64,000 bases of DNA, from contig JABDCY010000001.1 of assembly GCA_013287855.1 (NCBI GenBank), positions 2,277 to 66,276 on the forward strand, in the 5' to 3' direction. Origin of the DNA: Candidatus Babelota bacterium (lineage in GTDB: Bacteria; Babelota; Babeliae; Babelales; Vermiphilaceae). Positions 8,816 through 64,000 of the stretch are shown here, piece after piece (the first letter of the stretch is position 1; the number at the start of each line of letters is the position of its first letter). The translations under genes and the position numbers were made by a program. The notes beneath the pieces were generated by a model. That model was not told the origin of the DNA and made no database searches. It worked only from the letters and a program-made list of their open reading frames with translations.

Positions 8816-8822
8816 TAATTTT

Positions 8823-33829: not shown

Positions 33830-34165
33830 ATGAAAATTGTTGCAACATTAGCCGTGGCATGTTTCTTCATATGTATTAACGCAATGGATACGAACAAAGG
33901 TGAAGTAATTGTTGAACCGATGTTATCACCAGAAACTCTTAAATCCCACATTACAAAATCTCCTCTAATTGCCGAAACCACTAAAGCTCTTAGCATAGGA
34001 AAAACTGATAACCCGCAAATCAGTCAAATTATACGAGAACTTCAAATACCTGGTTCAACATCTTCAGAAACAATAAGCATTGCCCAAGCAGTTAGGGCTT
34101 TATATAAACTTGATGGTTGTGCACTTCTTCTTGACAAAGATCTTGCAAAATTTAAACAGCAATAA
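33830..34165 (+). CDS. small secreted protein (paralog of 32568-32891)
   Basis: Leader MKIVATLAVACFFICINA; collinear similarity to the 32568 product. Confidence 0.6.
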   Translation: MKIVATLAVACFFICINAMDTNKGEVIVEPMLSPETLKSHITKSPLIAETTKALSIGKTDNPQISQIIRELQIPGSTSSETISIAQAVRALYKLDGCALLLDKDLAKFKQQ

Positions 34166-47747: not shown

Positions 47748-47848
47748 TATTACCTTGGTTCGGTTGATTTTTTGATCTTTCAGTATTGAAATCAATATTA
47801 AAATAAATTTCTTCCAAACATTCTCAAAGGAGCTTGATAAACCACTCG

Positions 47849-48504: not shown

Positions 48505-48662
48505 AAACTCTTCCACTTACCGGCATCTAATATCTCCTCATCTACAAAACATGATACCAAGTATAATTGGTAGGTCAAATACCTTGCCGAACTGCGTAGA
48601 CGGTAGTAGGTTAAAAAACATCTACCGACTATGATATACCATTATTATGCGAGGATTTCAGT

Positions 48663-49361: not shown

Positions 49362-49660
49362 AGAAGTTACTGTTGTTTACTCTATTTTTTATGCACAGCA
49401 ATTTTTGCATGCAAACTAAGAAACAAATAAAACTTGTTTTTACGCAAGAAGATTTTGCGGCATTATCGCACATGCCACAAGCAGAACTTCTATCAGCGTG
49501 TAAAGATCTCATGCAAAATTATAATATCTTATACGGTGAAGCAACTACATTGGTCGATTTAGCTGAACGCTCTAAGAAACTCCTGCAACAAACGATCGCA
49601 GAAAATGCTCGGCTGAAAACGTTGGTAAGCCTGAGCGCTGACAAAGAAAATCAACATTAA
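49358..49660 (+). CDS. small secreted hypothetical protein
   Basis: ATGA-type overlap with the upstream gene. Leader MKKLLLFTLFFMHSNFC. Confidence 0.5.
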   Translation: MKKLLLFTLFFMHSNFCMQTKKQIKLVFTQEDFAALSHMPQAELLSACKDLMQNYNILYGEATTLVDLAERSKKLLQQTIAENARLKTLVSLSADKENQH

Positions 49661-50520
49661 CCAACCGCAGGTTTGGCATTCGTCATCTTTTCACCCAAAA
49701 ATCGCACATAATATTCGGTTGGGTTCAAGTTTGAGGCAACCCTGGTTTGCGCACATACTTTATCAAGCGCGAGAATCTTTTTAGGGAACGGTGACTTTTG
49801 CCAGTTTTCAAAATGACAGTACGCGGGCGACAACGCTTTGGTTGGTGGATTGTTGATAAAATAGCGGTTCAAATGACTTTCATCATTAAACACCGCAACA
49901 AATCCCCGGGCCACATCGGTATCCACATTGTTCATAGTCGTGCGCACAAGACGCAAAAATTCTTCACGCGTGCCGCCGTAAAATCCACCCGCAAAATAAA
50001 ATCTACCCTCATTGCGATGAATGCATGCAGTGGAAATTGGATTGGTTTCATAGATACCACGCTCAAACAAAAATTGCGGATGGCGCACGCCGACCCGATC
50101 GCTCAAAATTTCATCACCAATCGGCGCATTAAAGAGCATGTCAGCATCAATGGCAAACAGATAATCCATGTTCGCTAATTTTTCTTGATTATTATAATAC
50201 GCATGGAAGCGCATCATGGTCGCCCATGGCCAGCCCATTTGCACCTGTGGGACTTTTACTACTCGCGGATGTTCTGGAGGAGTTCCGTCAGTGAAAATAA
50301 AATAAGTCACATTGTGATGGGTACAAAAATAACGATCGGCACTTTCGATGAGCGGAGCAACAAAGTTGATATATTTGCCGGTTGCGGTAATCAAAAGACC
50401 AATATTTTGTTTTTTTGTGGTGTCTGCACAAAATTTCTCTGGATCTTCTGGCTTGTGTCGAGCGGCAAAGAGAAAAACGCCTACAAGTAATGTGATTGTT
50501 GTCATAATAATTTTGTTCAT
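49657..50520 (-). CDS. GT6-family glycosyltransferase (histo-blood-group ABO / alpha-1,3-Gal(NAc)-transferase-like), type II anchor, DXD retained
   Basis: Collinear with the human GTA catalytic domain as recalled: [34 protein letters not shown] / [38 protein letters not shown] / [32 protein letters not shown] / [45 protein letters not shown] / [25 protein letters not shown]. N-terminal anchor [14 protein letters not shown]. Confidence 0.85.
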   Translation of the reverse strand: [287 protein letters not shown]

Positions 50521-50560
50521 AACTTGAGTCCTTTATTTGATTCAGCTTTGTTTTTTGTCC

Positions 50561-50723
50561 CCTTCGTGGTGAGCATAGTCGAACCATAACACCGAATTTT
50601 AGTTATGAAAATTTGAAATCAGTATTTTTAAGATGAGTTGTATCTTGAAATAGCACTTAATTTTTTCAGCAAATTGCTGCTTACATGAGTTCGTAATGGT
50701 TCGACTATGCTCACCACGAACGG
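50561..50723. mobile_element. MITE-like arrangement: two inverted 28-nt REP-like units flanking a 108-bp AT-rich core
   Basis: ccttcgtggtgagcatagtcgaaccat (50561-50587) versus atggttcgactatgctcaccacgaacgg (50696-50723), with 25 nt of exact inverted identity. Confidence 0.7.
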
Positions 50724-50896
50724 ATAGTTAATTTTTTTCTATTTTATCTCCATTACAACTATCTACTAAAAGTCTAGATGACTAGTACTTATACTCCAAA
50801 TAGCAGGAGCTGACAAGGGAGATCGATGTTAATCTTGCACACTGACCCAGCAAAGGAGGTAAACTAAACATAGGGACCTAAGAGGGAGGGAAAACA

Positions 50897-51172
50897 ATGA
50901 GGCTAAATTTTACATTATTTGTAAGCATCATGGTATGGGCATCATGTAACTGTATGGATGAAAAATATCTACTCAGCGGCAACGCCAAACAATTTTTGGC
51001 AGAGAACGCTGCTAAGATGCAGCATGTTGAACCTAAAACACTCAGGGCAGCTATTGTTGATGTCGAAGCACTAAAAGTACATTTTGACGGTCTGACTGAA
51101 GATCAAGAATTGAAGATTCTTGTGCGAAAAATTTACCAACGACAACCAGATGAAAATGATTCAATTTTTTAG
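50897..51172 (+). CDS. small secreted hypothetical protein
   Basis: GAGGGAGGG SD and leader MRLNFTLFVSIMVWASCNC. Confidence 0.5.
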   Translation: MRLNFTLFVSIMVWASCNCMDEKYLLSGNAKQFLAENAAKMQHVEPKTLRAAIVDVEALKVHFDGLTEDQELKILVRKIYQRQPDENDSIF

Positions 51173-51178
51173 CCGATT

Positions 51179-51823
51179 TTATTTACGTACCATGATAATT
51201 TGGTAGCCAGTTACATACACACGCCATCCTTTTTGTCGTAAATAATAAATCACTAATTCTCCTTTACCACCGTGCACCAAACCACAATCATCAATCATTA
51301 CCACAGCATTGGGTGATAACTTATCATAGGCAGCTTCAATTTCGTATAAATGATGTAATTGCGATGGCAAGGGATTATTTCCATCAAAATCAAAACTATC
51401 TAAGTACAGAAAATCGATAGGTTTATCAAAATTTTTTAAAAAATGTACTGAATCATTTACTATAAGATGCACATTGTTTTCACTTCCTGGGAATAACATG
51501 GTGCGTGCATTTTCTACGGCTACAGGATTAATGTCAACAGAGTATAAGTCAGCTTGATGTAAAGCACTCCAGTAGCCAAAAAGAACGGTAAAACCACCAT
51601 TACTGTCAAACACCCCTTCTTTATCTCTGGTCGTTCCTGTTTCTACAATTGTTTTTACATGACGCTCGGTCATCAAGTGTGCCGCAACCTCAAAGGTTAC
51701 GCGCCGGTCATTATGAACTTTGCTTCGTATAAAGGCGAGGGCAGAATCTAGTGAGCTGTACGCATCTTGAACGCATACTAATACATAAAAACTCGCTGCC
51801 ATTATCTTAAATTTAACATTCAT
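51179..51823 (-). CDS. class I SAM-dependent methyltransferase-like protein with N-terminal leader
   Basis: ATG at 51823 after GAGGAA. Leader MNVKFKIMAASFYVLVCVQDAYS. IVETGTTRD, LYSVDINP and DFLYLDSFD give a Methyltransf_24-like layout. Confidence 0.55.
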   Translation of the reverse strand: MNVKFKIMAASFYVLVCVQDAYSSLDSALAFIRSKVHNDRRVTFEVAAHLMTERHVKTIVETGTTRDKEGVFDSNGGFTVLFGYWSALHQADLYSVDINPVAVENARTMLFPGSENNVHLIVNDSVHFLKNFDKPIDFLYLDSFDFDGNNPLPSQLHHLYEIEAAYDKLSPNAVVMIDDCGLVHGGKGELVIYYLRQKGWRVYVTGYQIIMVRK

Positions 51824-52009
51824 CACTATATTCCTCATTAGAAAAACTATCAAAAACACAGTTAAAACCATTAAGTTTGCCAGAAACACTATTCATACAT
51901 TAATTGGATGTCAATTGGTTTTTTTGTATCACACATGCACAATTTTTACTTGGCGCTCTAATCTGCTATCCTAAAAAAGGTCGTTGATTAGCAATTTTCA
52001 GGATCATTA

Positions 52010-52675
52010 ATGCAAATTCTTAAAGCTCACGAAATTTTATTGTTCATCAAACCATACTTGCCCGATTATCCCGTTATCGTAGAAGCGGGAGCCTTTAATG
52101 GCCGTGACACGCGGCGCCTAGCCACCTTTTGGCCACAAGGCACCGTGCATGCATTTGAACCGGTGCCTGAAATTTTTGCACAACTGAAATCGAATTCTGC
52201 ACATTTATCTAACGTGCATTGTTATCAACTAGCACTCAGCAATTCCACTGGCACTGCCACATTTAATGTCTCTGAAAATCCCCACAAGCCTGGTGCGCCC
52301 TATCCTGCAGGCTCTCTGCTCACGCCAAAAGAACGGTTACAATTTTCATCGGCGCAGTACCCAAAAAAAATTCAAGTTCCAACAACAACACTTGATGACT
52401 GGGCACAAAAATACAAGATTAGTCATGTGGATTTTTTATGGTTAGATTTGCAAGGCCATGAACTTGCCGTTATGCAAGCAGCACCACAAATCTTACAACA
52501 GGTGAAAATTATTTTTACCGAAGTAGAATTTGTGCAAGCCTATGAAGGTTGTCCGCTCTATCATGAAGTACAACAGTGGCTTGAAGCACACGGTTTTGTG
52601 GCCATCGCAAAGGATTTTGAAACGACCAGCGGATGGTTTTTTGGCAATATGGTGTTCAAGCAAACAAAGAATTGA
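52010..52675 (+). CDS. FkbM-family methyltransferase
   Basis: VIVEAGAFNGRDT...VHAFEPVPEIFAQL...ALSNSTGTATF...VDFLWLDLQGHELAVM matches the FkbM family pattern. No leader. Confidence 0.75.
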   Translation: MQILKAHEILLFIKPYLPDYPVIVEAGAFNGRDTRRLATFWPQGTVHAFEPVPEIFAQLKSNSAHLSNVHCYQLALSNSTGTATFNVSENPHKPGAPYPAGSLLTPKERLQFSSAQYPKKIQVPTTTLDDWAQKYKISHVDFLWLDLQGHELAVMQAAPQILQQVKIIFTEVEFVQAYEGCPLYHEVQQWLEAHGFVAIAKDFETTSGWFFGNMVFKQTKN

Positions 52676-52738
52676 TTTTATAGTGATATATTGTAATTTA
52701 GAATGCAGAAATTTTAATTAGAAAAAAGGAGCATGTTT

Positions 52739-53740
52739 ATGAAAAGATCAAGACTCATCTTGTCGTATATTGTTATTTTCTTATTCGCCCACGTTAGCCA
52801 TTGCATGTCTCATGACCCAAGTTTACGCATTGACCGCGTTGTCCTTTGGGGCTGCAAACATTTTTCTGATACTTTTGCCTACGTCAATTTTGCCTTCGCT
52901 AAAGCGTTCAAGCATCTTGGCTATGAAGTCTTGTGGCTCGACAATAATGACCGTATAGATCATATTAATCTCGCACATTCTCTCATTTTAGGAGTCGGCC
53001 ATGTCGATCAAAATATACCTTTGCGTGACGATTGTTATTATGTGCTGCACAATTGTGATCTGACCAAATACGACTCTTTGTATAAGGCAAACAAATGTCT
53101 TGTCTTACAGGTTTACGTTAACGATATTCTCACGCGTGATGTGGAATATATTGCCGACTGCGTGTACTATCAACCTTCGTTAAAAACACTGTACCAGCCT
53201 TGGGCAACTGATCTACTGCCCCATGAAATCGATAGTATCAAACTACAGCTAACAACTAAAAAAAACAAAGAATCTGTCGTCTATTGGGTTGGCACCATAT
53301 GGGATGGCTTATTTGGTAATCGAGATAAACTCAGTCGCTTTGAAAGCGCCTGCAACAAAGCAGGAGTACGCTTTGAACATCTCGCTAATATACGTTTGGA
53401 GCAAAATATCAATTTCATGCAAAAATCTTTTCTAGCACCTGCAATTCAAGGACAATGGCAATGTGAGAAAGGCTATATCCCATGCCGTATTTTTAAAAAC
53501 ATCAGTTATGGTGCTCTTGGCATAACTAATTCAGAAACTGTCTATAATTTATTTAAAAGAAAAATAGTTTATAATCCCGACACGTATCAACTTTTTTTTG
53601 ATGCTTTTGAACGTGCAAAAACAATCACCTTGGAAGAACAATATGAACTTATGGATTTTGTAAAAGAACATCATACCTATTTAAATCGTATCGAACGAAT
53701 TTTTCAGTTTCTTGCACGTTTGCAACAAACAACACATTAA
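52739..53740 (+). CDS. hypothetical protein with leader, possible glycosyltransferase
   Basis: ATG at 52739, 7 nt after AGGAG. Leader MKRSRLILSYIVIFLFAHVSHC. The C-terminal half (VYWVGTIWDG...RIFKNISYGALGITNS) loosely resembles the GT-B C-domain. Assignment is weak. Confidence 0.3.
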   Translation: MKRSRLILSYIVIFLFAHVSHCMSHDPSLRIDRVVLWGCKHFSDTFAYVNFAFAKAFKHLGYEVLWLDNNDRIDHINLAHSLILGVGHVDQNIPLRDDCYYVLHNCDLTKYDSLYKANKCLVLQVYVNDILTRDVEYIADCVYYQPSLKTLYQPWATDLLPHEIDSIKLQLTTKKNKESVVYWVGTIWDGLFGNRDKLSRFESACNKAGVRFEHLANIRLEQNINFMQKSFLAPAIQGQWQCEKGYIPCRIFKNISYGALGITNSETVYNLFKRKIVYNPDTYQLFFDAFERAKTITLEEQYELMDFVKEHHTYLNRIERIFQFLARLQQTTH

Positions 53741-53753
53741 TTGAGGAGATATA

Positions 53754-54578
53754 ATGAATAAAAATATTTTTTTTATCCTAGCAGTCATCAGCTATCCATA
53801 TTTAGCAGCTACCGGTATTACGCTTAAAACTGGTAATCGAAACAGCTATATAGGTATGTTCAAACCCACAGATAAAAATTTACAAGGCTTAAAATTTGGC
53901 AATTGGGGAAGCCGTCCCTATGAATATGCCTGGGTCAGTTCACTTGCTTCGGTCGAAGGCAAACGAGTAATCGATTTGGGGGTAGGTATACCTTCACACT
54001 ATAACTGGTATCAATATGTCGTCGAACAGTTAAAGCCTGCATTTTATGCGGGAGTAGACCTTGATGAACGCATCAAAGATCAGCTTCTTTCGGGATCAAA
54101 TTTTGAACTTAAATATATGAATATGGCAAACCTAGAATATCCCGACAAATCATTTGATATCGCGTATTGCATCAGTACCTTTGAGCATATTCCGTACGCT
54201 GACTTCATGGGATCCATCAAGGAAGCACATCGTGTTTTGACTGATGATGGACTGCTCATCATAACCCTTGATGAAGAATGGGATAAAAATGAACCATCAA
54301 ACTACTACAATGGATGGAATACACTTGAACTAAGTCTTATGCAGCGTGGTTTTACTCGCAAGAATCGTTCATTTGGACTTCCAGAATTTATGATGCTGAT
54401 TAAAGATTACTTTGTATTATATCAAGACGACGCAATGATAGATTCAACACTAGGTATAATCTCGTCTAAGCGTGATGGATTCATTTATTATCAACGGGAA
54501 AATCGTGATAATTCAATTTTAAACAGCGGGTCAGTTATTAATAGTTGTGTAAGTTATGCTGTGCTCAAAAAAAAATAA
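53754..54578 (+). CDS. class I SAM-dependent methyltransferase with N-terminal leader
   Basis: GAGGAG SD. Leader MNKNIFFILAVISYPYLAA. VIDLGVG, FDIAYCISTFEHI and DDGLLIITLD are Methyltransf_11-like. Confidence 0.6.
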   Translation: MNKNIFFILAVISYPYLAATGITLKTGNRNSYIGMFKPTDKNLQGLKFGNWGSRPYEYAWVSSLASVEGKRVIDLGVGIPSHYNWYQYVVEQLKPAFYAGVDLDERIKDQLLSGSNFELKYMNMANLEYPDKSFDIAYCISTFEHIPYADFMGSIKEAHRVLTDDGLLIITLDEEWDKNEPSNYYNGWNTLELSLMQRGFTRKNRSFGLPEFMMLIKDYFVLYQDDAMIDSTLGIISSKRDGFIYYQRENRDNSILNSGSVINSCVSYAVLKKK

Positions 54579-54589
54579 TTTAGCTGAGG

Positions 54590-55291
54590 TTAATTTACAA
54601 GTACTTTAGCCAACTGCTGTTTAATGCAATAATTGTATGCTAAATTAATATGGACATTGCCATCGCTTAAAGTTTTATCAAGATCTCCCGCTTGTGTAGC
54701 ATAAAATTGATAAAAATCTAAAAATTTTATCCCATGCTGTGAGCAGTTGGTTTTAAGCAAACTGTTAAGCTGCTGTGTAATAAGTATGCGATCACTAATT
54801 GAACCATAGCTGGGATATTCTTTAGAAAAATCGCCGTTCATTGGTGGTACTACATTAGCAATAACGCACGTTATATAATTATAATTCTGCTTATTATTCA
54901 GTACAGTTTTAAGGTAATTATCAGCTAATGGCTGCAGAATGGAAGCTAATGGTACTTTTTGTAAATCGCGCTGTTTACCGATATGACATCTGACATCAAT
55001 CTCACCGAAAACAAAAATAACCGTATCGCCGTCTTGTATTCCCAAATCTCTTAAGTTTAATGCATTAAACCCATCGCGGCCTACGCGATGCATTGTAGTT
55101 GGTCCTAGCCAATGGATATCAAATGCCATTGAATTGGCGTTTTTATAAGCATAATAATGAGAAAAACGCCAATCCAATATTCCTTCATAAGCAAAGCAAT
55201 AAAAGGCGTGACTATCGCCAACAACGTGTATTCGTGATGCCGACAAAAAAGAGCTCATCGAAACTACGATGAGCAATAATTTTTTTCCCAT
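54590..55291 (-). CDS. SGNH/GDSL-type hydrolase (possible glycan O-acetyl esterase/transferase) with leader
   Basis: Leader MGKKLLLIVVSMSSFLSA, immediately followed by block I IHVVGDSHAF. Block II-like FVFGEIDV. Block V-like DGNVHIN. Confidence 0.55.
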   Translation of the reverse strand: MGKKLLLIVVSMSSFLSASRIHVVGDSHAFYCFAYEGILDWRFSHYYAYKNANSMAFDIHWLGPTTMHRVGRDGFNALNLRDLGIQDGDTVIFVFGEIDVRCHIGKQRDLQKVPLASILQPLADNYLKTVLNNKQNYNYITCVIANVVPPMNGDFSKEYPSYGSISDRILITQQLNSLLKTNCSQHGIKFLDFYQFYATQAGDLDKTLSDGNVHINLAYNYCIKQQLAKVLVN

Positions 55292-55421
55292 CTGCCCCCC
55301 CGGACCAAATGAATAATTGCAAATCCCTTATGTAATAACATACAAAAAAATAAATTAATTTCGCTATAGATTTATGAAAAACATATGATAGGATTGCCAA
55401 GTTACAAAAAAGGAGAAAAGA

Positions 55422-56480
55422 ATGATGAAGCCTAATAAAATATCCATTTTTATTTTTATATTTTTGACTTTGAATGGCTATTCTGCAGATGCACATCAAC
55501 CAGAATTAACGTTATGGCAAGTAAAAGTTGGTTCAGCATTGCATAAAGACTTCTTGCAAACTCTTATAAATATTTTTGGTGTTGATGTTTTTGTTGAAAG
55601 TGGGACCTATATAGGGGATAGCACCGCCATTGCAGCCACATGCTTTAAAGAGGTCCATACCATAGAATTGGGACAGCAGTTATATCAAGCCGCAAAGGAG
55701 CGTTTCAGAAATCAAGCCAATGTTCATCTCTATCTAGGTGATTCCTCAAAAGTACTGGATAAAATTCTAAAGACCCTTAAAGGAAATATTCTTTTTTGGC
55801 TGGATGGACATTATAGCGGTGGTAATACCGCTCTTGGTGATTCCAATACACCTATACTTCAGGAGCTTGCGGCAATCAAAAATTGCGGTATTACCGATTC
55901 GATTATTCTCATCGATGATATGCGACTATTCAGAAACTTCAAAAACAATTCCGATTCTAACATAAATGGTTATCCAACAATAGAAGACCTGCAACACGCT
56001 CTCTTTACTATCAATCCTCAATACCAAATTCTCATCATGGGCGATATCGCGCTCGCGTATCCACATAAATTTTTCATCGCTCTTTCACCGGTTTTGCAGG
56101 CATGCACTCAAAGCCGTTGCTCAGATAAATTTACTTTTGATCAAATTCTTGTTGCTGATAAAACTATCGGCTCAGCTAGCGGCAGCGAACGTACTGCCAT
56201 AGTAGATTTAGTACAAAGATTTCCTAATGCTAATGGATATTACCATCTTTTATATGGTCTTGTTTGTGAGCAAGAAAAATCTTATCAAGAGGCATATAAT
56301 CATTACATAACTGCACTAAACAATGAGTTCAATAACTGGCGGGCATGGTTATATGCTGCACGCGTTGCTCATAAAGTGAATAATAAACAACTCATGGAAT
56401 TGACATTGCAAGAAGCAATAAAACAACAAACAAATGTTACTAAAGAAAAATTATGGTTGGCTATAACGGAAGAAAAATAA
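55422..56480 (+). CDS. putative methyltransferase-fold protein with leader and C-terminal TPR-like helical region
   Basis: AGGAG SD. Leader KISIFIFIFLTLNGYSADA. FVESGTYIGDST (motif I-like), WLDGHYSGG, IILIDDMRLF. C-terminal YHLLYGLVCEQEKSYQEAYNHYITAL. Confidence 0.4.
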   Translation: MMKPNKISIFIFIFLTLNGYSADAHQPELTLWQVKVGSALHKDFLQTLINIFGVDVFVESGTYIGDSTAIAATCFKEVHTIELGQQLYQAAKERFRNQANVHLYLGDSSKVLDKILKTLKGNILFWLDGHYSGGNTALGDSNTPILQELAAIKNCGITDSIILIDDMRLFRNFKNNSDSNINGYPTIEDLQHALFTINPQYQILIMGDIALAYPHKFFIALSPVLQACTQSRCSDKFTFDQILVADKTIGSASGSERTAIVDLVQRFPNANGYYHLLYGLVCEQEKSYQEAYNHYITALNNEFNNWRAWLYAARVAHKVNNKQLMELTLQEAIKQQTNVTKEKLWLAITEEK

Positions 56481-56500
56481 GCCTTAAAAAAAGGATTGTA

Positions 56501-57385
56501 ATGAACGTACTCCATAAATTTTATACGATGATGCTGTGCTCAATTGTTTGTTTTGCATTAATTGACGCTAAGGAAAAAGTTCTCATTTTCACACAAGTAT
56601 ATAATCGCCCTGATTTTATTGAACTTCATGCAAAAACATTCAAAGCCTTTATGCAAGATGAGTATGAATATGTTGTTTTTAACGATGCAAATGATCCAAA
56701 TATGCAATATCAAATTGAACGAACATGTTCAAAATTAGGCATTCGATGCTTTAAAATTCCCTATAATCCAGATACTCGTCCCGGATGGCGCCATATTGCC
56801 GGAATTAAATATTCATTTGAAACCATCGGCTTTGACTTTGATGGTATCGTAATGCTCGTTGATTCCGACATGTTCTTGGTAAAACCATTTAGCGCAAATA
56901 AGTATATGGAAGGATATGATCTAATAGGCGGGGCAGATTCACGAGAGAATGACAGAATAAAAGTATCATATTTGATGCCAACTTTGGTGTTCATTAACAT
57001 GAAAACAGCGCCAAATAAACGAACTCTCAATTTTTATGGTGGCCATGTTGAAGGCCTGCCTTGCGATGTTGGTGGCCACACCTATTATTATTTAAAAAAT
57101 AATCCAACCTTGCGTTATCGTTTATTTACTTATCTATCCCTTCAAGGCCTCGTGGATAAAAATACTTCCTGGCTACAAGCGCTAGGTTTTGATGATCATT
57201 CTATTAATTTTATTCGCACAACTGATTATCATTATGGTTTTCAATTCCACGCCGAATCCTACTTCATGCATTACTACGCAGGCGGATCAAATTGGCCAGG
57301 ATACTCGCAGGATTACTTACATATAAAAAATGTAATGTTACATAATTATATCGATACGCAAATGCGCAACTATCACGTGTCATAA
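56501..57385 (+). CDS. putative GT-A-type glycosyltransferase with leader (DXD)
   Basis: ATG at 56501 after AAGGA. Leader MNVLHKFYTMMLCSIVCFALIDA. LIFTQVYNRPDFIELH, VVFNDAND and MLVDSDMFLV (DXD). Confidence 0.45.
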   Translation: MNVLHKFYTMMLCSIVCFALIDAKEKVLIFTQVYNRPDFIELHAKTFKAFMQDEYEYVVFNDANDPNMQYQIERTCSKLGIRCFKIPYNPDTRPGWRHIAGIKYSFETIGFDFDGIVMLVDSDMFLVKPFSANKYMEGYDLIGGADSRENDRIKVSYLMPTLVFINMKTAPNKRTLNFYGGHVEGLPCDVGGHTYYYLKNNPTLRYRLFTYLSLQGLVDKNTSWLQALGFDDHSINFIRTTDYHYGFQFHAESYFMHYYAGGSNWPGYSQDYLHIKNVMLHNYIDTQMRNYHVS

Positions 57386-57461
57386 TTACTTATCGGCGTA
57401 TTGTTTTCCAGAATAGTATTTACGATTTATTTGGATGCAGACATAAATTCATTTTTATGTC

Positions 57462-57491
57462 TTGACAAGGGAAGTCGCCATCGTCTATGAG
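57462..57491 (+). promoter_or_regulatory. candidate sigma70-type promoter for the 57565 gene
   Basis: TTGACA (57462-57467), an 18-nt spacer, then TATGAG (57486-57491). Preceded by hairpin agacataaa/ttatgtct. By-eye match only. Confidence 0.3.
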
Positions 57492-57564
57492 TAGAGTATA
57501 GCAAAGAAAATAGGCTATGCTTTTTCATTGTTTTCTTAAGTTAATTTTATAAAAGGATTTTGGC

Positions 57565-58266
57565 ATGAGAATTTTAACCTTTGTCGTTTTGTTAACCTGG
57601 TTCATAATGTCAAACGCCCAACTTGTTCAGCATAACATGGCCCAGGTTTTACATGTTCCAGAAGTATTGGCGGCCCACATGATTGAAAGAATCGGGTACA
57701 TTGATCGGCTCAACACCAGTCATGCGCCATATTACCCTATTTTGTCGAATGCGTTTTTGAAAGAGCGTGGCTATAAAATTGGTTGTGAAATTGGTGTTTT
57801 TACGGCCGGGCATGCCGCATTTATCTTAGCAAACACCGCGGTAGAAAAATTATATTGTGTTGATTCATACATTGCACCTATGCATATTGTTACTACCATC
57901 ACTGATGGATTTGACAGGCGTTACTGGCAAGCATGTTGGGACACAATGTACCATTACGCGGTAGACAAACTTTCTGCATTTGGCAAGCGGGCATACTTCA
58001 TTCGAATGTCAGCAGCGCAAGCAGCTAGCATGATTGCCGATCATAGCCTTGACTTTATATTTATCGACGGCGATCATTCCTATGCTGGAGCCTTATCAGA
58101 TTGCGGCAACTATTACGACAAAGTTCGCTCTGGCGGCATGATCGCCGGCGACGATTATAACATCGATGATGTTGGTCGCGCTGTACGCGATTTCTTTGGA
58201 CAAAAGAAGCTCGTCATTAATGTCTATCCAGGACAGCAAAGATTTTGGTGGGTAGAAAAACCATAA
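57565..58266 (+). CDS. class I SAM-dependent methyltransferase (Methyltransf_24/CmcI-like) with leader
   Basis: Leader MRILTFVVLLTWFIMSNA. GCEIGVFTAGHA, LDFIFIDGDHSYAG and GGMIAGDDY. Confidence 0.6.
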   Translation: MRILTFVVLLTWFIMSNAQLVQHNMAQVLHVPEVLAAHMIERIGYIDRLNTSHAPYYPILSNAFLKERGYKIGCEIGVFTAGHAAFILANTAVEKLYCVDSYIAPMHIVTTITDGFDRRYWQACWDTMYHYAVDKLSAFGKRAYFIRMSAAQAASMIADHSLDFIFIDGDHSYAGALSDCGNYYDKVRSGGMIAGDDYNIDDVGRAVRDFFGQKKLVINVYPGQQRFWWVEKP

Positions 58267-58290
58267 GCATTTTGAAAAAAATCTTAAAGC

Positions 58291-58986
58291 TCAACATCTG
58301 ACATAGGCTTCATTGGGAGCACCCGTTGAAACACTGCTGCCAAACACGTTAACTTCTATATCGAGATTTTCAACATACAGAACTTTAAAATTTTTATTTT
58401 TATTTTTTTTCCTAAGAACATACTTGGCAACTTCACGTTCAAGATTAATCATTTGGTCTTCCATAACCCAATAATTAATATTTTGCAGCATTTCTTGAAG
58501 ATACTTGCATTTCATGGCAAATCCTAAAGTATAAGCCTGTGCTGTTGGCCAGTGAATTTTTATTATTGCATCATAATCGGAACTGTTTTCCACAAGTTTT
58601 AAAAATCTATCAGAGATAAAGCGATAACGACCTGTCATTTTTAATATCATATCCTCAGGATTAAAATTAAAGTAACCGATTGCTTCTAGCATCGTTTGCG
58701 CTTCGTTGATGCCTTTATTTCTTAAATTGGGATTATTAGTTGTAGCATAAAATACATGGTTACTGTAATCGTCAAGGAACGTGGGTCCGTGCTTTTTTAG
58801 CGCTTCCACAATATAAAAATCATGATAGCCAAAATTGTCCAAACCAGTGAAATTGGTTATGTACTGCTGTCTTCTAAATTCAAAATATGCGTCCGTCAAT
58901 GCAGCTGTTAAGAGAATGTGCATTTTACCAAAACAGGGAAAAACAACTAAGATCAGTACTATTGATAATGCGCTTTGTTTTTGCAT
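58291..58986 (-). CDS. leader-bearing protein of unknown family (tandem paralog 1)
   Basis: ATG at 58986 after GAGGAA. Collinear with the 58998-59693 product, e.g. NFGY.DFYIVEAL.KHGPT.L..Y.NHVFYAT.NNP.L.N.GINEA.T.LEA and DMILK.TGRY.F. Confidence 0.55.
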   Translation of the reverse strand: MQKQSALSIVLILVVFPCFGKMHILLTAALTDAYFEFRRQQYITNFTGLDNFGYHDFYIVEALKKHGPTFLDDYSNHVFYATTNNPNLRNKGINEAQTMLEAIGYFNFNPEDMILKMTGRYRFISDRFLKLVENSSDYDAIIKIHWPTAQAYTLGFAMKCKYLQEMLQNINYWVMEDQMINLEREVAKYVLRKKNKNKNFKVLYVENLDIEVNVFGSSVSTGAPNEAYVRC

Positions 58987-58997
58987 GAACGTTTTCC

Positions 58998-59693
58998 TCA
59001 ATAATGTATGACCTCATTCGATCCTGGCGCCGTTGTACTACCATAGGTGCTACCGGTAATATCTAATTGAGGAACATACAGAACTTTAAACTTTCCTTGC
59101 CTTTCTTTTTGCAGCACATAATCACCGACTGCTTTCTCTAAGATCACCCAATGGTGTTCCATGGCGTGATAATCCAAATGCTCATACATGTCTTGTAAGT
59201 GTTTGCATTTCATGGCAAAACATACTACATAAACTTGTCCTGATGGCGCATGAATTCTCAGAATAGCGTCATAGTCAGAATTATTTTCTATCATTTTTAA
59301 AAAATAGTCAGAACCAAAGTGATATCTACCAGTACACTTTAGTATCATGTCATCTGGAGCAAAATTAAAGTGGTACGTTGCTTCAAGAATAGTTCTCGCT
59401 TCATTTATACCATTATTTTTGAGATGTGGATTGTTAACCGTTGCATAAAAAACGTGATTACAATAATTTTCTAGATAGGTTGGCCCATGTTTTTGCAATG
59501 CTTCGACAATGTAAAAATCTTTGTAACCAAAATTTGTTAAGACATTAAATGTTTCAAGGTATTGTTTTTGTCTAAATTCTGCGTACACATTATTAGTCAG
59601 TGCAGCGCTTAATAAAATTTTTAATTGTCCGCTACATGACATCACTATCGCACTGATGAGAATAAGTAACGATACTTTATTATACAATCTCAT
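58998..59693 (-). CDS. leader-bearing protein of unknown family (tandem paralog 2)
   Basis: ATG at 59693; the ORF is open to TTG 59717. Leader VSLLILISAIVMSC. See paralog 1. Confidence 0.55.
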   Translation of the reverse strand: MRLYNKVSLLILISAIVMSCSGQLKILLSAALTNNVYAEFRQKQYLETFNVLTNFGYKDFYIVEALQKHGPTYLENYCNHVFYATVNNPHLKNNGINEARTILEATYHFNFAPDDMILKCTGRYHFGSDYFLKMIENNSDYDAILRIHAPSGQVYVVCFAMKCKHLQDMYEHLDYHAMEHHWVILEKAVGDYVLQKERQGKFKVLYVPQLDITGSTYGSTTAPGSNEVIHY

Positions 59694-60936
59694 AAAATTT
59701 TTCCTGTTTTTCGACAATTTGTTTAAGAATTTTCTTCATAGGCTCTAATGGCACGGTCACATGAGAATCAGCAAACGTAAAGCGCGTAGGTACAACCCAA
59801 TAATTTGCACCGGCAATACTCGACAACCACCAACACCATTCACAACCACTGTCATTAATACCCTGTGGATTCGCAAGATAAGCTAACTCTGGATGAATCT
59901 CAATAACTGATGCACCTGGATTTGCATATAGCACATTAGTCAATCCGCTTGCCATAACACCAATGATTAATCGGGCATTGTTAAAAATTTTAATCTGTTC
60001 GCTTACGCTCATGCTCGCATCAAATATCAAAATTTCGTATCCCTTATGTGCAAAACTCTCGTTTACCGTCCTCACAAGTTCAGCTAAATTTAAAATGCGA
60101 CGATCCGCTTCTCTTCTTTGAATAATCACAACCAAATTATTTTTGTATTCACGCGAAGAGGGTTTTTGATAGGCAGCTTCTATAAGCTCAGATCTCAACT
60201 CTGATAAAAGTTTTTTTGGGATGGGTTCCATCAAAAATGGGGTTGCAAAATAAAGAGTTTCTGCGTGATATAAAGCATTGCTATTGGCAACAATAACTTG
60301 ATCTGAAGGAATTCCTAATAGGTGTAGGTATTCATGTACATAGCCCGCCACACTATTATGTTGATTATGTATAACTAATTTAATAGTAGGATCTTGCAAA
60401 ATAAATTTTCTTAATAGTAGTATACTGGGCAGCCTATCGATGACCCAGTGATAGTATAAAGTTGGTCCTTGCACCGTAGCAAGTTTATCATGATATAGCA
60501 CTGCCATATGCATTACGTCTTGCTGAAGATTCCAGAATATAGGAATACCAGGAGCAACTTTGATATCAAAAAGAAACTCTTGTTGATAATCAAAAACCGT
60601 TCCTAACTGGCGTGGTGATGTAAAGGCTGAGTGCAATTTAGCGACATATGTATTTTTCAAACTTTTTATGCCATATGATTGTGGATTATTCCAATCAAAT
60701 GTTGAATTTAATGTCTTTAAATGCCCACTATCCAACGCATTAGGTTGTGCGCCATATGCCACCGTATCTTCATACTCTGGAAATTTTATAAGATCGATTC
60801 CTACCGCATCACGAATGTTATAAATTTTTTTTAATGCATTAGGGTTAGGAACAGAATATAAATCGGTACCATACAACAGAACTATGAAAATAAAAAAATT
60901 ATATACTGTATTATTATTGTGTTTACTGTGAAACAT
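59680..60936 (-). CDS. GT61-family (DUF563) glycosyltransferase with N-terminal anchor
   Basis: YYHWVIDRLPSILLL and IIGVMASGLTNVLYANPGASVIEIHP match the two GT61/DUF563 signature regions. Anchor VYNFFIFIVLLYGTDLY. Confidence 0.7.
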   Translation of the reverse strand: MFHSKHNNNTVYNFFIFIVLLYGTDLYSVPNPNALKKIYNIRDAVGIDLIKFPEYEDTVAYGAQPNALDSGHLKTLNSTFDWNNPQSYGIKSLKNTYVAKLHSAFTSPRQLGTVFDYQQEFLFDIKVAPGIPIFWNLQQDVMHMAVLYHDKLATVQGPTLYYHWVIDRLPSILLLRKFILQDPTIKLVIHNQHNSVAGYVHEYLHLLGIPSDQVIVANSNALYHAETLYFATPFLMEPIPKKLLSELRSELIEAAYQKPSSREYKNNLVVIIQRREADRRILNLAELVRTVNESFAHKGYEILIFDASMSVSEQIKIFNNARLIIGVMASGLTNVLYANPGASVIEIHPELAYLANPQGINDSGCEWCWWLSSIAGANYWVVPTRFTFADSHVTVPLEPMKKILKQIVEKQEKFYEIV

Positions 60937-61834
60937 GTCCCATGCCCTTTAATAATTTTGCCAAAGCGTCTTTAATATGAGATATATTTGGATACAATTT
61001 CAAAAGTTTCGCAGCACTCAACTCCGCATTTGCGCGTCGAGCTTTCAACATCGCATCTTGTTCTTGAATGGTAAAATTTTCCCACGTATGATTTGGGTCA
61101 ACATATTTTTTATACATGTCCAAAACTTCATTGTGCGACATAGCGCCAGGGTTCACAAAATTATAATTCCCTTTTAATTCTCGCAATGTCATGTCCACCG
61201 CAATAGGTAAAAGATCATCTAATATGCATAAAGAGTTAGGCACATTAATGAGCTTTTTATATTTAATAATTTTACCCACAAAACCTACGTCTGGATCGGT
61301 AGAAATAGGCATTTTAACGCGTAAATTAAGCACGTTTGGATATTCGAGCATTAATTTTTCCAACAAAATTTTAGTACGTGAATAAAATGAGCCGTTAAAA
61401 TTAGGCTCATCTTCTTCGGTAAATCCAATGCCGCTGTACATTGGGTGCTGCGCATCATACTCATAAATGCAGCCGGTACTAATATTAGTTATGTGTATAT
61501 TATGCAGGAAAGCAATATCGATAAGATTCAAGGTGCCAATCACGTTAACACGCAAAGTTTCTTGTTTGTGCGTCTCGCACCAATCAACATTCGGTTTTCC
61601 TGTAATGCCCGCGGTATTAATAATGTAATCTGGTTTAACTTGAGTAATTTCTGCACTAATAGCTTCCCGGTTTTCTAAACGTGACTGTGCACAAACAGGA
61701 TTGTGGCCAAGCTCTTGTAAAATTCTTACAATTTTTTGTCCAATCCAACCACTTTTACCACCAAAGACTAAAACCGTTTTGGGCAGTGTTAATGTTGAAA
61801 TACAACACAGCAAAAAAACAAGTAATTTTTTCAC
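60923..61834 (-). CDS. NRS/ER-type NDP-4-keto-6-deoxyhexose 3,5-epimerase/4-reductase (plant UER1 / giant-virus type) with N-terminal leader
   Basis: Collinear with Arabidopsis NRS/ER as recalled: GKSGWIG / GKTGWIG; TGKPNVDWCETHKQETLRVNVIGTLNL / TGRPNVDWCESHKVETIRTNVAGTLTL; STGCIYEYDAQHPMYSGIGFTEEDEPNFNGSFYSRTK / ATGCIFEYDSGHPLGSGIGFKEEDTPNFTGSFYSKTK; NLRVKMPIS / TLRVRMPIS; IPNSLCILDDLLPIAVDM...YNFVNPGAMSHNEVLDMYKKYVDPNHTWENFT. GTG start 7 nt after GGAG. Leader MKKLLVFLLCCISTLTL. Confidence 0.85.
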   Translation of the reverse strand: MKKLLVFLLCCISTLTLPKTVLVFGGKSGWIGQKIVRILQELGHNPVCAQSRLENREAISAEITQVKPDYIINTAGITGKPNVDWCETHKQETLRVNVIGTLNLIDIAFLHNIHITNISTGCIYEYDAQHPMYSGIGFTEEDEPNFNGSFYSRTKILLEKLMLEYPNVLNLRVKMPISTDPDVGFVGKIIKYKKLINVPNSLCILDDLLPIAVDMTLRELKGNYNFVNPGAMSHNEVLDMYKKYVDPNHTWENFTIQEQDAMLKARRANAELSAAKLLKLYPNISHIKDALAKLLKGMGHVSQ

Positions 61835-61848
61835 GCTACAACTCCAAC

Positions 61849-62952
61849 TTATTTTTTATAATCTTCCAAAACTCCCCATTGTAGAAATAATTTTGCAACT
61901 TCATCTTTTGATACCACGGCCATATCTGAACTGTATTCAGGCAGAATGTGTACATCTACCGGCTTGCCTTCACGTATATATATCGGCGGAGTTTGATGTT
62001 TATAATAGAGATTTATCACCGATGGCCTTATAATAAATCGTCCGGCAAATTCGTAGGTTCGAGCCATTTCTGCTTGACTAATTAATGCTTCATGTAATTT
62101 TTCACCTGGTCGCAAACCGATGAGCTTAATCGTATTATTTCCGTGGAATGCTTCTTTTAATATTTCAATGAGATCCGTAACTTTATGAGCGGGCATCCTG
62201 GTGACAAATATTTCTCCACCAATGCCATAGCGCAATGCATCAAATATTAATGCAACTGCTTCATCTTTGGTTATCATAAAGCGCGTCATGCGCTCATCAG
62301 TTAAAGGGATATCATCACCATTTTTTATTTTCTCGGTAAATATTGGTATTGCCGAACCCGTGCTTTCAAGAACATTACCATAACGAGCAACCACAAATTT
62401 TGTTGTTATTTTTGATGGATCATAATTAGTAAATATTTTTTCGCTCGCAAATTTACACGCACCATAAATATTAATAGGAGAACAAGCTTTATCGGTTGAA
62501 ATAAAGACCAACCTGTTGACACTATTTTCAACACAGGCATTAAAAACATTTATCGAACCAAGAATATTAGTTTTGATCGATTGTTCGACATTACTTTCTA
62601 ATATATCGATGCGCTTCAAGGCTGCTACATGAAATACTACATCCGCATGCTTTGTGGCATATAACACGTCTTGGTAATCTCTAATATCACCAATAATAAA
62701 TTTGATTTTGGGATTGTTACCAAATAACTTAGACATGTTGAAATGTTTAACTTCATCACGACTAAAAATAGTTATGCTTGCCGGGTTATATTGCAATAAC
62801 TTCTCGGTGATAGCTCGGCCCAAAAAACCAGTACCACCTAAGACAACAATGTTTTTATTTTCGAAAAGTGCATGATTGTCTGGCGATGCGAAGACACAAG
62901 TGACTGCTAACGAAATTATACAAAATAAAAATTTGGAAAAATTTTTTTTCAT
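61849..62952 (-). CDS. CapD/PseB-type UDP-HexNAc (or UDP-hexose) 4,6-dehydratase (extended SDR) with N-terminal leader
   Basis: VLGGTGFLG, IFSRDEVKH, FIGDIRD, HVAALKRI, IKTNILGSINVFNAC, ISTDKACSPINIYGACK, RYGNV, LTDERMTRF and GLRPGEKLHE are collinear with PseB/FlaA1 as recalled. Leader MKKNFSKFLFCIISLAVTCVFA. Confidence 0.8.
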   Translation of the reverse strand: MKKNFSKFLFCIISLAVTCVFASPDNHALFENKNIVVLGGTGFLGRAITEKLLQYNPASITIFSRDEVKHFNMSKLFGNNPKIKFIIGDIRDYQDVLYATKHADVVFHVAALKRIDILESNVEQSIKTNILGSINVFNACVENSVNRLVFISTDKACSPINIYGACKFASEKIFTNYDPSKITTKFVVARYGNVLESTGSAIPIFTEKIKNGDDIPLTDERMTRFMITKDEAVALIFDALRYGIGGEIFVTRMPAHKVTDLIEILKEAFHGNNTIKLIGLRPGEKLHEALISQAEMARTYEFAGRFIIRPSVINLYYKHQTPPIYIREGKPVDVHILPEYSSDMAVVSKDEVAKLFLQWGVLEDYKK

Positions 62953-63185
62953 GTTACTAGCCCCCCTTTAAAATAACTTTCCCCAAAGTTATTTTTGCCT
63001 CATGAAATTATTTGACGATTCAAGTATGAAATTTTATTTATTTGCGCGTCAAGGGTCTCACACAAAAACCCATTATTTTACGATAAAATTTAACATTAGA
63101 AAAATTTGTATTGAAAATATCTGATATTTTTATTTAATATAATTTTAAGTTTTTAGACTCGTCATAAAATTTCAAGGGGGGAATT

Positions 63186-64000
63186 ATGTGGCACAAGACG
63201 TATGCGGTTTTTGTCAGCACGGGTATTTTTTTATCCTGTTTTGGTTTTGAAAAATTAACTATCTTGACACAATCACCAGTTGCTTCAGGGGGTTGGGTTG
63301 GTCATCCGGCTGTTAATAGCAGTATTTTGCGCGGACTTGCAGCTTTAGGGGTTAATCATAATTTTAATCCTCGCACTCTTGCTGAAATTGGGGATGCCGT
63401 CTTTGTACCAGCCGGCCAAGTGGCATTACAAACGGCAATTTCACTAAAACAACAAGGGAAAATACGAGTATTGTTAACTGGGCCAAATGTGGTAGCAAGA
63501 ATGACGGAACTTAATAGTATTGTAGCCCATCCTGCCGTTGATCGCTTTGTTGCTAATTGCGAATGGACCAAAATTTTTTGCGAAGGTAGCGAACCTAAAT
63601 TACATAATAGAGTTGTCATATGGCCTGCCGGTGTTGATTGCAAATATTGGAAACCAACCGGCAATACTAGCATGAGTAAACAAGTACTTGTGTATAAAAA
63701 AAATGTTGATGAATACTTTTGTCAGGAAGTGGAACACACTTTGAGAAGATATGGTTGGCAGCCGATGCGCATTACATATGGCGAATATGGCACAGATGGT
63801 TTTAAAAATATGCTTAATCAAGCACGGTTTGCGGTATTTTTAAGTAGATCAGAATCACAAGGCATTGCTCTAGCAGAATGTTGGTCATGTAACGTGCCAA
63901 CGCTTGTTTGGGATATTCAACAGCCACTTTCATATTTAGAATATTCCATATGGCCTGTTTCCGCAGCCCCTTACCTGACAAACGCCACCGGCCAATTCTG
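63186..64000 (+). CDS. putative GT-B glycosyltransferase, N-terminal 271 codons (runs off right edge)
   Basis: ATG at 63186 after AAGGGGGG. I translated it by hand and found it stop-free to 64000; it is absent from the ORF track because no stop lies in the window. Leader MWHKTYAVFVSTGIFLSCFG. FLSRSESQGIALAECWSCNVPTLVWD resembles the GT1/GT4 E-x7-E region. Confidence 0.6.
   Translation, partial: MWHKTYAVFVSTGIFLSCFGFEKLTILTQSPVASGGWVGHPAVNSSILRGLAALGVNHNFNPRTLAEIGDAVFVPAGQVALQTAISLKQQGKIRVLLTGPNVVARMTELNSIVAHPAVDRFVANCEWTKIFCEGSEPKLHNRVVIWPAGVDCKYWKPTGNTSMSKQVLVYKKNVDEYFCQEVEHTLRRYGWQPMRITYGEYGTDGFKNMLNQARFAVFLSRSESQGIALAECWSCNVPTLVWDIQQPLSYLEYSIWPVSAAPYLTNATGQF

Follow-up and report, generated by a model that had tools for sequence, protein, structure and literature searches.

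In bacterial glycobiology, nucleotide-sugar synthesis and Leloir transfer are taken to be cytoplasmic processes, and beyond the inner membrane the donors are taken to be lipid-linked. Here we describe a block of glycan-building genes, at positions 49657-64000 of a 64,000-nucleotide stretch of DNA (the window; GenBank assembly GCA_013287855.1, contig JABDCY010000001.1, positions 2,277 to 66,276 of the forward strand), in which nearly all enzymes begin with a predicted export-type leader. The window belongs to an uncultured Babeliales bacterium of the Dependentiae (formerly TM6), whose members live inside protists as obligate parasites. In Chromulinavorax destructans, another member of the phylum, signal peptides are found on 44% of coding sequences (CDSs), and the genome encodes a Sec system and no lipopolysaccharide (LPS) genes (PMC6561590); in Babela, ankyrin effectors carry signal peptides (PMC4378268). 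All TM6 genomes encode type II secretion system (T2SS) components, with two gspD copies, and ATP/ADP translocases, and Babeliales are devoid of LPS genes (PMC4776705). Sec plus T2SS constitute the sole export route of Dependentiae (PMC6561590, PMC4378268, PMC4776705). In Chlamydia trachomatis, GlgA performs Leloir synthesis in the inclusion lumen on host UDP-glucose (PMC4829429; Gehre et al. 2016).

In translations of the open reading frames (ORFs) of the block, 14 of the 15 CDSs longer than 200 amino acids encode a leader, defined as a short basic N-terminus with a hydrophobic segment running up to the catalytic fold. The original prediction had counted 15 of 16; our recount lowers this figure but agrees that the FkbM methyltransferase (52010-52675) is the only such CDS without a leader. 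The hydrophobicity rule is crude, as it misses some evident leaders (such as P0007 and P0064) and flags the first β strand of the GT2 glycosyltransferase at 37412, so that leader counts are approximate. Catalytic motifs are intact behind the leaders, with GxxGxxG and YxxxK in both short-chain dehydrogenase/reductase (SDR) enzymes, STDKA in the dehydratase and DXD in the GT6 enzyme and in the family of the gene at 56501. The island continues past the window: Logan contig L001, identical over the window end, adds about 3.9 kb containing the full 322-amino-acid GT-B-like gene, a leader-bearing 310-amino-acid protein, a second FkbM gene with a leader and a second GT6 gene with a leader.

Leader start codons are preceded, at a distance of 6-9 nt, by Shine-Dalgarno (SD)-like motifs (AAGGAG, GAGGAG, AGGGGGG, TGGAG and similar), and the genes for leucyl-tRNA synthetase (LeuRS), ribosomal protein S1, serine hydroxymethyltransferase (SHMT), the asparagine-synthase-like (AsnB-like) amidotransferase and elongation factor P (EF-P) have the same arrangement. 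Translations of both SDR genes contain no in-frame ATG from the leader to the Rossmann motif, in line with the original prediction, and frame and hydrophobicity are kept in more than 150 diverged homologues with no conserved internal start. All of this argues against an annotation artefact, in which the true starts would lie downstream and the hydrophobic stretches would be untranslated or incidental. Alternative upstream starts do occur in two genes (51179-51889 and 56453-57385), and in a leader-bearing nucleoside diphosphate kinase (NDK) encoded elsewhere in the window an internal Met coincides with the start of the domain, but we consider such an artefact extremely improbable. The SD motifs and the retention of frame and hydrophobicity in homologues show that these predicted leaders are translated.

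We compared the island families with 48 loci of the Dependentiae/Chlamydiae clade taken from GTDB species genomes (L002-L049). A leader lies upstream of the conserved domain in 152 of 161 homologues (94%). For the UDP-L-rhamnose synthase-type enzyme (NRS/ER, a 3,5-epimerase/4-reductase), 116 of the 120 closest homologues (61-79% identity) have at least 12 amino acids before the first β strand. Orthologues uniformly lacking leaders, which the original prediction had named as evidence that would speak against it, are thus clearly not what we found. Pairwise identity is 20% for leaders and 67% for mature parts, and the share of hydrophobic residues is 59% in leaders and 39% in mature parts; because leader sequence is free and leader character fixed, these segments behave as functional targeting peptides. 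These results show that the putative leaders are kept in physico-chemical type across Dependentiae and environmental Chlamydiae. The closest named homologues of the island proteins come from Candidatus Babeliales, Dependentiae and Babeliaceae, and leader-bearing rhamnose synthases are present in cultured systems, namely strain Noda2021 in Vermamoeba (P0100) and a Vermiphilus pyriformis genome (L030).

Leader anatomy was assessed mainly in the 120 NRS/ER homologues. Their leaders have a median length of 21.5 amino acids, with an n-region of median 3 amino acids and net charge +2 and a hydrophobic or small core of median 11 amino acids. The uncharged span (h plus c regions) has a median of 15 amino acids (interquartile range 14-17), compared with 15 in the GT-A-like family and 17 in the U236 family, and the 19-mer Kyte-Doolittle maximum reaches 2.0 in only 12% of NRS/ER leaders. 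Counting back from the first β strand, Ala is the commonest residue at -3 (38%) and -5 (22%), and the pattern [AVSTILCG]-x-[ASG] occurs in the last 10 leader residues in 84% of cases versus 53% in within-leader shuffles (maximum 66%). A median of 3 residues separates the A-rich -3 position from the start of the fold, so the NRS/ER family has no stem; in most other families too the first β strand follows within a few residues of the leader, and only GT6 (about 18 amino acids) and GT61 have a longer linker. By this anatomy, the leaders look like cleavable Sec/signal peptidase I (SPase I) signal peptides, unlike Golgi-type signal anchors. The Golgi-like type II topology of the original prediction therefore gives way, in view of the 15-residue span, the AxA-type enrichment and the stemless NRS/ER enzymes, to a cleavable Sec/SPase I anatomy.

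Two other export or anchoring routes found no match in the leaders. Tat export of folded, cofactor-loaded enzymes was rejected, as the twin-arginine pattern RR-x-[FGAVML]-[LITMVF] is present in 0 of 263 leaders. Lipoprotein (signal peptidase II) tethering was rejected as a general rule, as the NRS/ER, U236 and GT-A-like leaders have no conserved Cys; isolated lipobox-like strings, VMSC in the 58998 gene and FLSC in the 63186 gene, are lost in homologues.

The same measurements bear on the idea that the leaders are uncleaved tethers, with catalytic domains that face the cytoplasm (N-out/C-in or on a re-entrant helix) and form a membrane-bound factory using the cell's own nucleotide sugars. This arrangement would place substrates where textbook biochemistry expects them, and membrane-anchored Polysacc_synt_2 dehydratases with cytoplasmic domains exist (PglF, WbpM). 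AlphaFold2 (AF2) models the leaders as helices, and the mean charge differs little across the NRS/ER leader, at +1.78 on the N-flank and +1.47 on the C-flank, so that the positive-inside rule alone leaves NRS/ER orientation unfixed. However, a 15-residue uncharged span that includes a polar c-region is too short for a stable transmembrane helix, and N-termini are mostly basic, with an N-flank net charge of +1 or more in 97% of NRS/ER, 80% of U236 and 90% of GT-A-like homologues. The enrichment of small AxA-type residues at the leader end, the near-neutral C-flanks of U236 and GT-A-like leaders, and the end of the PseB-like leader of the window (VFA, followed by SPDNHALFENK) also fit poorly with tethers. 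Moreover, an M15 peptidase and dozens of small proteins of the window that appear to be secreted have the same kind of leader, and neighbouring membrane-associated GT2 and GT4 enzymes manage without one. We therefore regard cytoplasm-facing tethers as improbable.

The homology of NRS/ER to solved structures begins just past the leader, and leaderless relatives start at the Rossmann strand. NRS/ER homologues from the Candidate Phyla Radiation (CPR) and from DPANN, at about 40% identity, are leaderless and start directly with MK-x-LIFG. In a wider sample of the 150 best 50%-identity cluster representatives from 1.84 billion proteins, a leader is visible by eye only on P0122-P0125, P0129 and P0134, which belong to the Dependentiae/Chlamydiae clade; other representatives include many proteins of 600-700 amino acids, the length of eukaryotic dehydratase-synthase fusions, that are leaderless by eye. 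By the automated rule, 14 of the 145 representatives P0126-P0270 score as leader-bearing, with some of these calls falling on the first β strand. These comparisons show that the predicted leaders are lineage-specific additions to otherwise ordinary catalytic folds.

In a neighbour-joining tree of mature domains, built without branch support, all leader-bearing NRS/ER proteins fall in one clade in which Dependentiae and Chlamydiae are interleaved; this clade lies beside leaderless cluster representatives and apart from the CPR/DPANN clade. The simplest history would be that an enzyme of eukaryotic or viral type gained a signal once and was then exchanged between Dependentiae and Chlamydiae. Inheritance of the leader from a eukaryotic type II donor was considered and rejected, for NRS/ER because relatives of eukaryotic length and those from CPR and DPANN are leaderless, and for GT6 because the nearest solved relative, BoGT6a, begins at the fold. 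On a contig labelled as a Methanobacteriota archaeon (L050:10001-10840), an NRS/ER without a leader shares 53% identity with the query and falls among the leaderless representatives in the tree; this could be a binning contaminant or a transfer.

The window provides an internal control in the form of a conventional glycan cluster at 26115-47795, characterized by Pfam, NCBIfam and its N-termini. Its three GT2 and two GT4 genes, a methyltransferase-GT2 fusion, a Methyltransf_11 gene, the AsnB-like amidotransferase and a Wzx-type flippase are all leaderless, which argues that only some glycan enzymes receive leaders and that these do not reflect a general tendency of composition. Other ORFs in the same interval do bear leaders (for example 29254, 31001, 38298 and 43269). 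The housekeeping genes of the window, which encode LeuRS, S1, SHMT, a DEAD-box helicase and the AsnB-like amidotransferase, mark it as part of a bacterial chromosome. About half of the window ORFs of at least 90 amino acids are leader-bearing, and LeuRS, S1, EF-P, SHMT, the helicase, the AsnB-like protein, GT2 and GT4 are leaderless. The trait is thus genome-wide and not confined to the island, at a frequency in the window close to the published 44%. An AT-rich composition that creates hydrophobic N-termini was rejected as an explanation, because housekeeping and conventional glycosyltransferase genes of the same window are leaderless.

Five loci of environmental Chlamydiae (L011, L013, L016, L022 and L031; labelled Simkania, Parachlamydiaceae or Chlamydiae) carry a leader-bearing 4,6-dehydratase gene directly upstream of a leader-bearing NRS/ER gene, with the pair lying around position 8800-11000 of each locus. 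The dehydratase is an NDP-hexose 4,6-dehydratase (GDP_Man_Dehyd/Epimerase, E about 1e-70), and from these assignments the pair is predicted to be a complete two-enzyme route from UDP-glucose to UDP-rhamnose. Its neighbours in L013, L022 and L031 include leader-bearing GT61, GT25 (two), GT2 and GT47/RXYLT1-like genes. The leader-bearing pair makes the phenomenon common to two unrelated phyla of protist-associated intracellular bacteria.

Pfam and PDB sequence matches bear out the enzyme labels given in the original prediction, namely GT6, GT61, methyltransferases, NRS/ER and PseB-like dehydratase. The last two, both on the minus strand, are the sugar-nucleotide enzymes of the island. The NRS/ER gene (60923-61834), whose leader abuts VLVFGGKSGWIG, matches Arabidopsis thaliana NRS/ER (PDB 4qqr, E 4e-94) and Mimivirus L780 (7jid, E 2e-60), with PDB homology from residue 22, just past the leader, and a Pfam RmlD/Epimerase match; it contains GGKSGWIG and YSRTK motifs, and Y151 and K155 are invariant in alignment A1. 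The PseB/FlaA1-type NDP-sugar 4,6-dehydratase (Polysacc_synt_2; 61849-62952; Pfam PF02719, E 1e-84) matches PDB 2gn4 (E 4e-75) from residue 23, its translation contains GGTGFLG, STDKAC and YGACK, and 11 of 12 homologues have a leader. Because this upstream partner in Dependentiae is of PseB type and not RmlB type, the NRS/ER substrate may be a 2-acetamido analogue.

Several glycosyltransferases accompany this pair. The GT6 gene (49657-50520, minus strand; Pfam PF03414, E 4e-44) encodes a leader and a DAD (DXD) motif that aligns to NAN of BoGT6a; homology to BoGT6a (PDB 4ayj, E 7e-41) starts at residue 39, and all 8 locus homologues have a leader. The GT61 gene (59680-60936, minus strand; Pfam PF04577, E 1e-22) has an N-terminal hydrophobic segment, FFIFIVLLYG, and a weak PDB match to POMGNT2. 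A GT-B-like gene with a leader (63186-64000, plus strand; weak Pfam GT1 match) is cut by the window end; it is 322 amino acids long in L001 (ORF 2700-3668), and 8 of 10 homologues have a leader.

The methyltransferases comprise two leader-bearing Methyltransf_24 enzymes (51179-51823, minus strand, start MNVKFKIM, GAGGA before the ATG, Pfam PF13578, E 2e-8; and 57565-58266, plus strand, leader ending in SNA before Q, PF13578, E 3e-12), a leader-bearing Methyltransf_11 S-adenosylmethionine (SAM) methyltransferase (53754-54578, plus strand, GAGGAG before the start, PF08241, E 2e-10) and the leaderless FkbM enzyme (plus strand; PF05050, E 4e-27), whose homologues in other loci have a leader in 9 of 11 cases. 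To these can be added a protein with a leader, a methyltransferase-like domain and a tetratricopeptide repeat (TPR)-like tail (55422-56480, plus strand; PF01596 weak at E 6e-3, ANAPC8 1e-5), leader-bearing in 7 of 7 homologues. An SGNH/GDSL-like protein (54590-55291, minus strand) has a leader followed by GDSH at residues 25-28; its Pfam match (PF13472, E 2e-4) is weak and under the curated cutoff, and 3 of 3 homologues have a leader. A conserved leader-bearing protein of 335 amino acids (52733-53740, plus strand; leader in 6 of 6 homologues, 80 invariant columns) belongs to a family with no Pfam or PDB sequence matches. Three small leader-bearing ORFs on the plus strand (48663-49361, 49358-49660 and 50897-51172), identified from their translations, gave no informative match in a Pfam scan and resemble about 25 other small leader-bearing ORFs across the window.

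Searching PDB sequences with profiles of the three Pfam-less families gave nothing useful, and for two of them we turned to AF2 models compared by Foldseek. The 56501-57385 product (plus strand; leader in 30 of 31 homologues) is modelled with a predicted local distance difference test (pLDDT) score of 95.1 and matches SpsA, TarP, BoGT6a, GT8 and GtrB at E about 1e-6, with template modelling (TM) scores of only 0.35-0.41. The 58291-58986 product (minus strand; pLDDT 91.5; 20 invariant columns in the family) has as best PDB matches BoGT6a, cytidylyltransferases, GlcAT-P, LH3 and PBCV-1 A64R, at TM scores of about 0.5, consistent with a GT-A or nucleotide-diphospho-sugar-transferase fold; 58998-59693 (minus strand) is a leader-bearing paralogue of this gene by sequence comparison (54-57% identity). 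All top matches of both models are GT-A or nucleotidyltransferase folds, although TM scores are only 0.35-0.58. DSD, a DXD-type motif, is invariant in the 56501 family, and the U236 family has no clear DXD. On these models, the 56501 and 58291/58998 families are best read as divergent GT-A-fold enzymes, so that 58291 and 58998, which the original prediction had listed among possible ORFan substrates or scaffolds, are more aptly described as members of a conserved family of putative GT-A-fold proteins. No other family of these islands is as expanded as that of 56501, of which a single locus can contain five or more copies. In a Dependentiae metagenome-assembled genome, one 607-amino-acid ORF (L007:10001-11824) consists of a single leader, an NRS/ER-type synthase and a GT-A-like domain (residues 316-601); this fusion behind one leader links the two functions and puts them in the same compartment. 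A GT-A-fold domain of the 58291/58998 type also forms the C-terminal half of leader-bearing proteins of 369-405 amino acids (L049:12575-14850, L044:6094-7311).

Because the leaders are translated, conserved and endowed with membrane-crossing properties, extracytoplasmic placement of the enzymes is the most economical reading; this part of the original prediction stands on conserved, targeting-type leaders, and its Golgi-like topology falls away. Our leading interpretation, held tentatively and with somewhat less than even confidence, is that this is a Babeliales glycan-building island whose enzymes are exported by Sec and retained in the periplasm or at the surface, where they would use host-derived donors. 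SecYEG would export the leader-bearing enzymes and SPase I would release them into the periplasm, where, or at the cell surface, they would stay. The PseB-like dehydratase and the NRS/ER-type synthase would convert a host-derived UDP-hexose to a UDP-6-deoxy-L-hexose of the rhamnose type; six or more GT6, GT61, GT-A-fold and GT-B-like transferases, five or six SAM methyltransferases and the SGNH-like enzyme would next assemble and decorate the glycan. Acceptors would be envelope or secreted molecules, possibly material flipped by the neighbouring Wzx pathway.

UDP-sugar, NADPH and SAM would reach these enzymes from the host compartment through the outer membrane. Inner-membrane ATP/ADP translocases draw host ATP (PMC4776705), so host nucleotides must cross the outer membrane and periplasm, and a parasite that already draws host nucleotides through its periplasm makes the supply of host donors plausible. 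The original prediction presumed that the space beyond the cytoplasm lacks UDP-sugars, NAD(P)H and SAM, a premise that consequently holds for free-living bacteria and not for intracellular parasites with such translocases (PMC4776705).

Several points weigh against Sec export with retention. Since Sec exports unfolded chains, the SDR enzymes would need to load NAD(P) outside the cytoplasm, and NADPH (744 Da) may be barred by an ordinary porin. The positive C-flank of NRS/ER leaders, where Lys often lies 1-2 residues past the putative cleavage site, weakens the positive-inside argument and can slow Sec export. The FkbM enzyme of the window and a few homologues elsewhere are leaderless. Finally, a stop in the periplasm is indistinguishable in sequence from passage onward through the T2SS.

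This last point opens an alternative that we think less likely, in which the enzymes continue by T2SS or vesicles into the host cytosol or vacuole and act there as a soluble, giant-virus-like glycosylation machinery on host donors. Its targets would be secreted bacterial proteins, the outer bacterial face or host molecules. Export into the host, one of three options in the original prediction, is the standard model of the phylum, because a large Sec-dependent secretome has been published, and published work explains in this way the 'eukaryotic' proteins of Dependentiae that bear signal peptides (PMC4378268, PMC6561590). The T2SS belongs to the core gene set of the phylum (PMC4776705), cofactors are abundant in the host and the problem of outer-membrane permeability is avoided. 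The enzymes are of eukaryotic cytosol, Golgi or virus-factory types, to judge by the NRS/ER, which is nearest to plant and Mimivirus enzymes, by GT61 and GT6 and by the fold match to PBCV-1 A64R, and the roughly 25 small secreted-type proteins of the window are possible acceptors. On the other hand, host cytosol would dilute a pathway that comprises at least 15 enzymes and passes through a labile 4-keto intermediate, and T2SS substrates fold in the periplasm, so that periplasmic cofactor loading would still be required. Chlamydiae, which own a type III secretion system (T3SS) for cytosolic effectors, nevertheless have Sec leaders on the shared enzymes, and the island adjoins a Wzx-type envelope pathway. 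We favour retention in the periplasm or at the surface over onward secretion because of the many enzymes and labile intermediate, the adjacent Wzx pathway, the lack of LPS in Babeliales and the use of Sec and not T3SS signals in Chlamydiae. For the broader proposal of a host-fuelled extracytoplasmic Leloir system of sugar-nucleotide interconversion, GT-A/GT-B transfer and methylation in Dependentiae and environmental Chlamydiae, located in the periplasm or in a host-facing space, we judge the evidence evenly balanced.

Other features of the window extend this picture. GC content is 36-37% at 54000-64000 versus 40-43% over most of the first 48 kb, as would fit an island that was acquired horizontally or evolves faster. 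The window contains no tRNA gene, and no other obvious boundary of the island was found; the only marks are the GC drop and a HicB-like antitoxin gene with a C-terminal helix-turn-helix-like part (48070-48516, minus strand). This gene sits by itself, with the leaderless glycan cluster on one side and the leader-bearing island on the other, and the ORFs of at least 60 amino acids include no apparent HicA partner. At the edge of the leaderless cluster, 46302-47795 (minus strand) encodes a leaderless 497-amino-acid fusion of a methyltransferase-like N-terminal half (weak Methyltransf_23) and a GT2 domain, and overlaps the stop of a leader-bearing 324-amino-acid protein (45331-46305) with a lipobox-like LTCG.

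About 25 small ORFs (100-260 amino acids) with signal-peptide-like N-termini lie at 1033-45000, and several look like adjacent paralogue pairs. Examples are 1033-1599, 1653-2192, 2441-2899, 2909-3376, 8190-8576 and 11117-11854, as well as 17058-17534, 24148-24687, 33830-34165, 36916-37320 and 44143-44625; the few that were scanned had no Pfam matches. These secreted-type ORFs fit the published ORFan secretome of Dependentiae and could be acceptors for the island enzymes. Leaders are also present on an M15 D-Ala-D-Ala dipeptidase (7447-8064), an HD-domain protein (15952-17049), an HGLS-like (2-oxoadipate dioxygenase/decarboxylase-like) protein (31001-32545) and a Methyltransf_25 protein (43269-43964), so that leaders on enzymes of cytoplasmic type are not confined to the island. 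In the NDK (13897-14439, plus strand), the Pfam NDK domain (E 2e-53) begins at residue 47, behind a 45-amino-acid N-terminal extension that includes a hydrophobic stretch and a lipobox-like LSSC. Initiation may in fact take place at an internal Met, residue 45; were the extension translated, this energy parasite would have an NDK that is exported or lipid-anchored.

The original prediction held that any placement of such enzymes outside the cytoplasm or on the membrane would be undescribed. This claim was too broad, as the Sec secretome is published (PMC6561590, PMC4378268), and only its application to a whole glycan pathway is new. In 7.7 million PMC papers and bioRxiv, which leave most subscription journals uncovered, we found no description of a leader-bearing glycan island with NAD(P)-dependent sugar-nucleotide enzymes and SAM methyltransferases, nor of leaders added to eukaryote- or virus-type enzymes and shared with Chlamydiae. 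Signal peptides on a huge share of Dependentiae proteins are thus already known; for a coherent leader-bearing glycan island we found no paper. If our interpretation is correct, the cytoplasmic rule would fail in obligate intracellular parasites, which have host metabolites all around their envelope, and the island would account for the making of a surface coat by Babeliales that lack LPS. It would be a concrete case of metabolic outsourcing. It would also mark out a set of genes that Dependentiae and Chlamydiae have traded with each other and, by ancestry, with eukaryotes or giant viruses. A cytosolic pathway of eukaryotic or viral type would then have acquired Sec signals on a single occasion before passing between these two phyla, both parasites of protists. 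Were the enzymes secreted into the host instead, they would represent a new class of Sec/T2SS glyco-effectors.

One close comparison is the Sec secretome of Chromulinavorax destructans and Babela massiliensis, which belong to the same phylum, have the same type of signal peptide on about half of their proteins and likewise export proteins whose homologues work in the eukaryotic cytosol; the secretome papers cover ankyrin-repeat proteins, proteases, nucleases and ORFans, whereas the exported proteins predicted here are glycan enzymes. Periplasmic glycan modification in bacteria (GtrABC, ArnT, O-antigen ligase, oligosaccharyltransferases) resembles the island in elaborating glycans after the flippase on the periplasmic side, but these systems use GT-C enzymes and polyprenyl-phosphate-linked donors, since the periplasm lacks nucleotide sugars, and the island encodes soluble Leloir enzymes of GT-A and GT-B types together with sugar-nucleotide SDRs. 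Luminal glycogen synthesis in C. trachomatis (GlgA, GlgB and others) also relies on sugar enzymes outside the bacterial cytoplasm and on host UDP-glucose brought into the pathogen compartment; it differs in using type III secretion and not Sec, in making glycogen and not a decorated heteroglycan, and in involving neither sugar-nucleotide interconversion nor methylation.

Giant viruses (Mimivirus R141/L780, chlorovirus A64R) share the NRS/ER type (L780), GT-A-fold transferases and methyltransferases, and are intracellular parasites of protists fed by host UDP-glucose, as we propose here; their enzymes are leaderless and act directly in the host cytoplasm, whereas those of the island must first cross a bacterial membrane. 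The eukaryotic Golgi likewise has non-cytoplasmic GT6, GT61 and GT-A domains behind an N-terminal hydrophobic segment and imports its donors, a placement that for the island is predicted from its genes. Golgi enzymes have an uncleaved anchor of about 20 amino acids and a stem, unlike the span of about 15 amino acids, the AxA-type ends and the mostly stemless folds found here. The Golgi has no UDP-rhamnose synthesis, and plant NRS/ER is cytosolic. If host-fuelled extracytoplasmic synthesis does take place, the island would be a bacterial functional analogue of the Golgi lumen.

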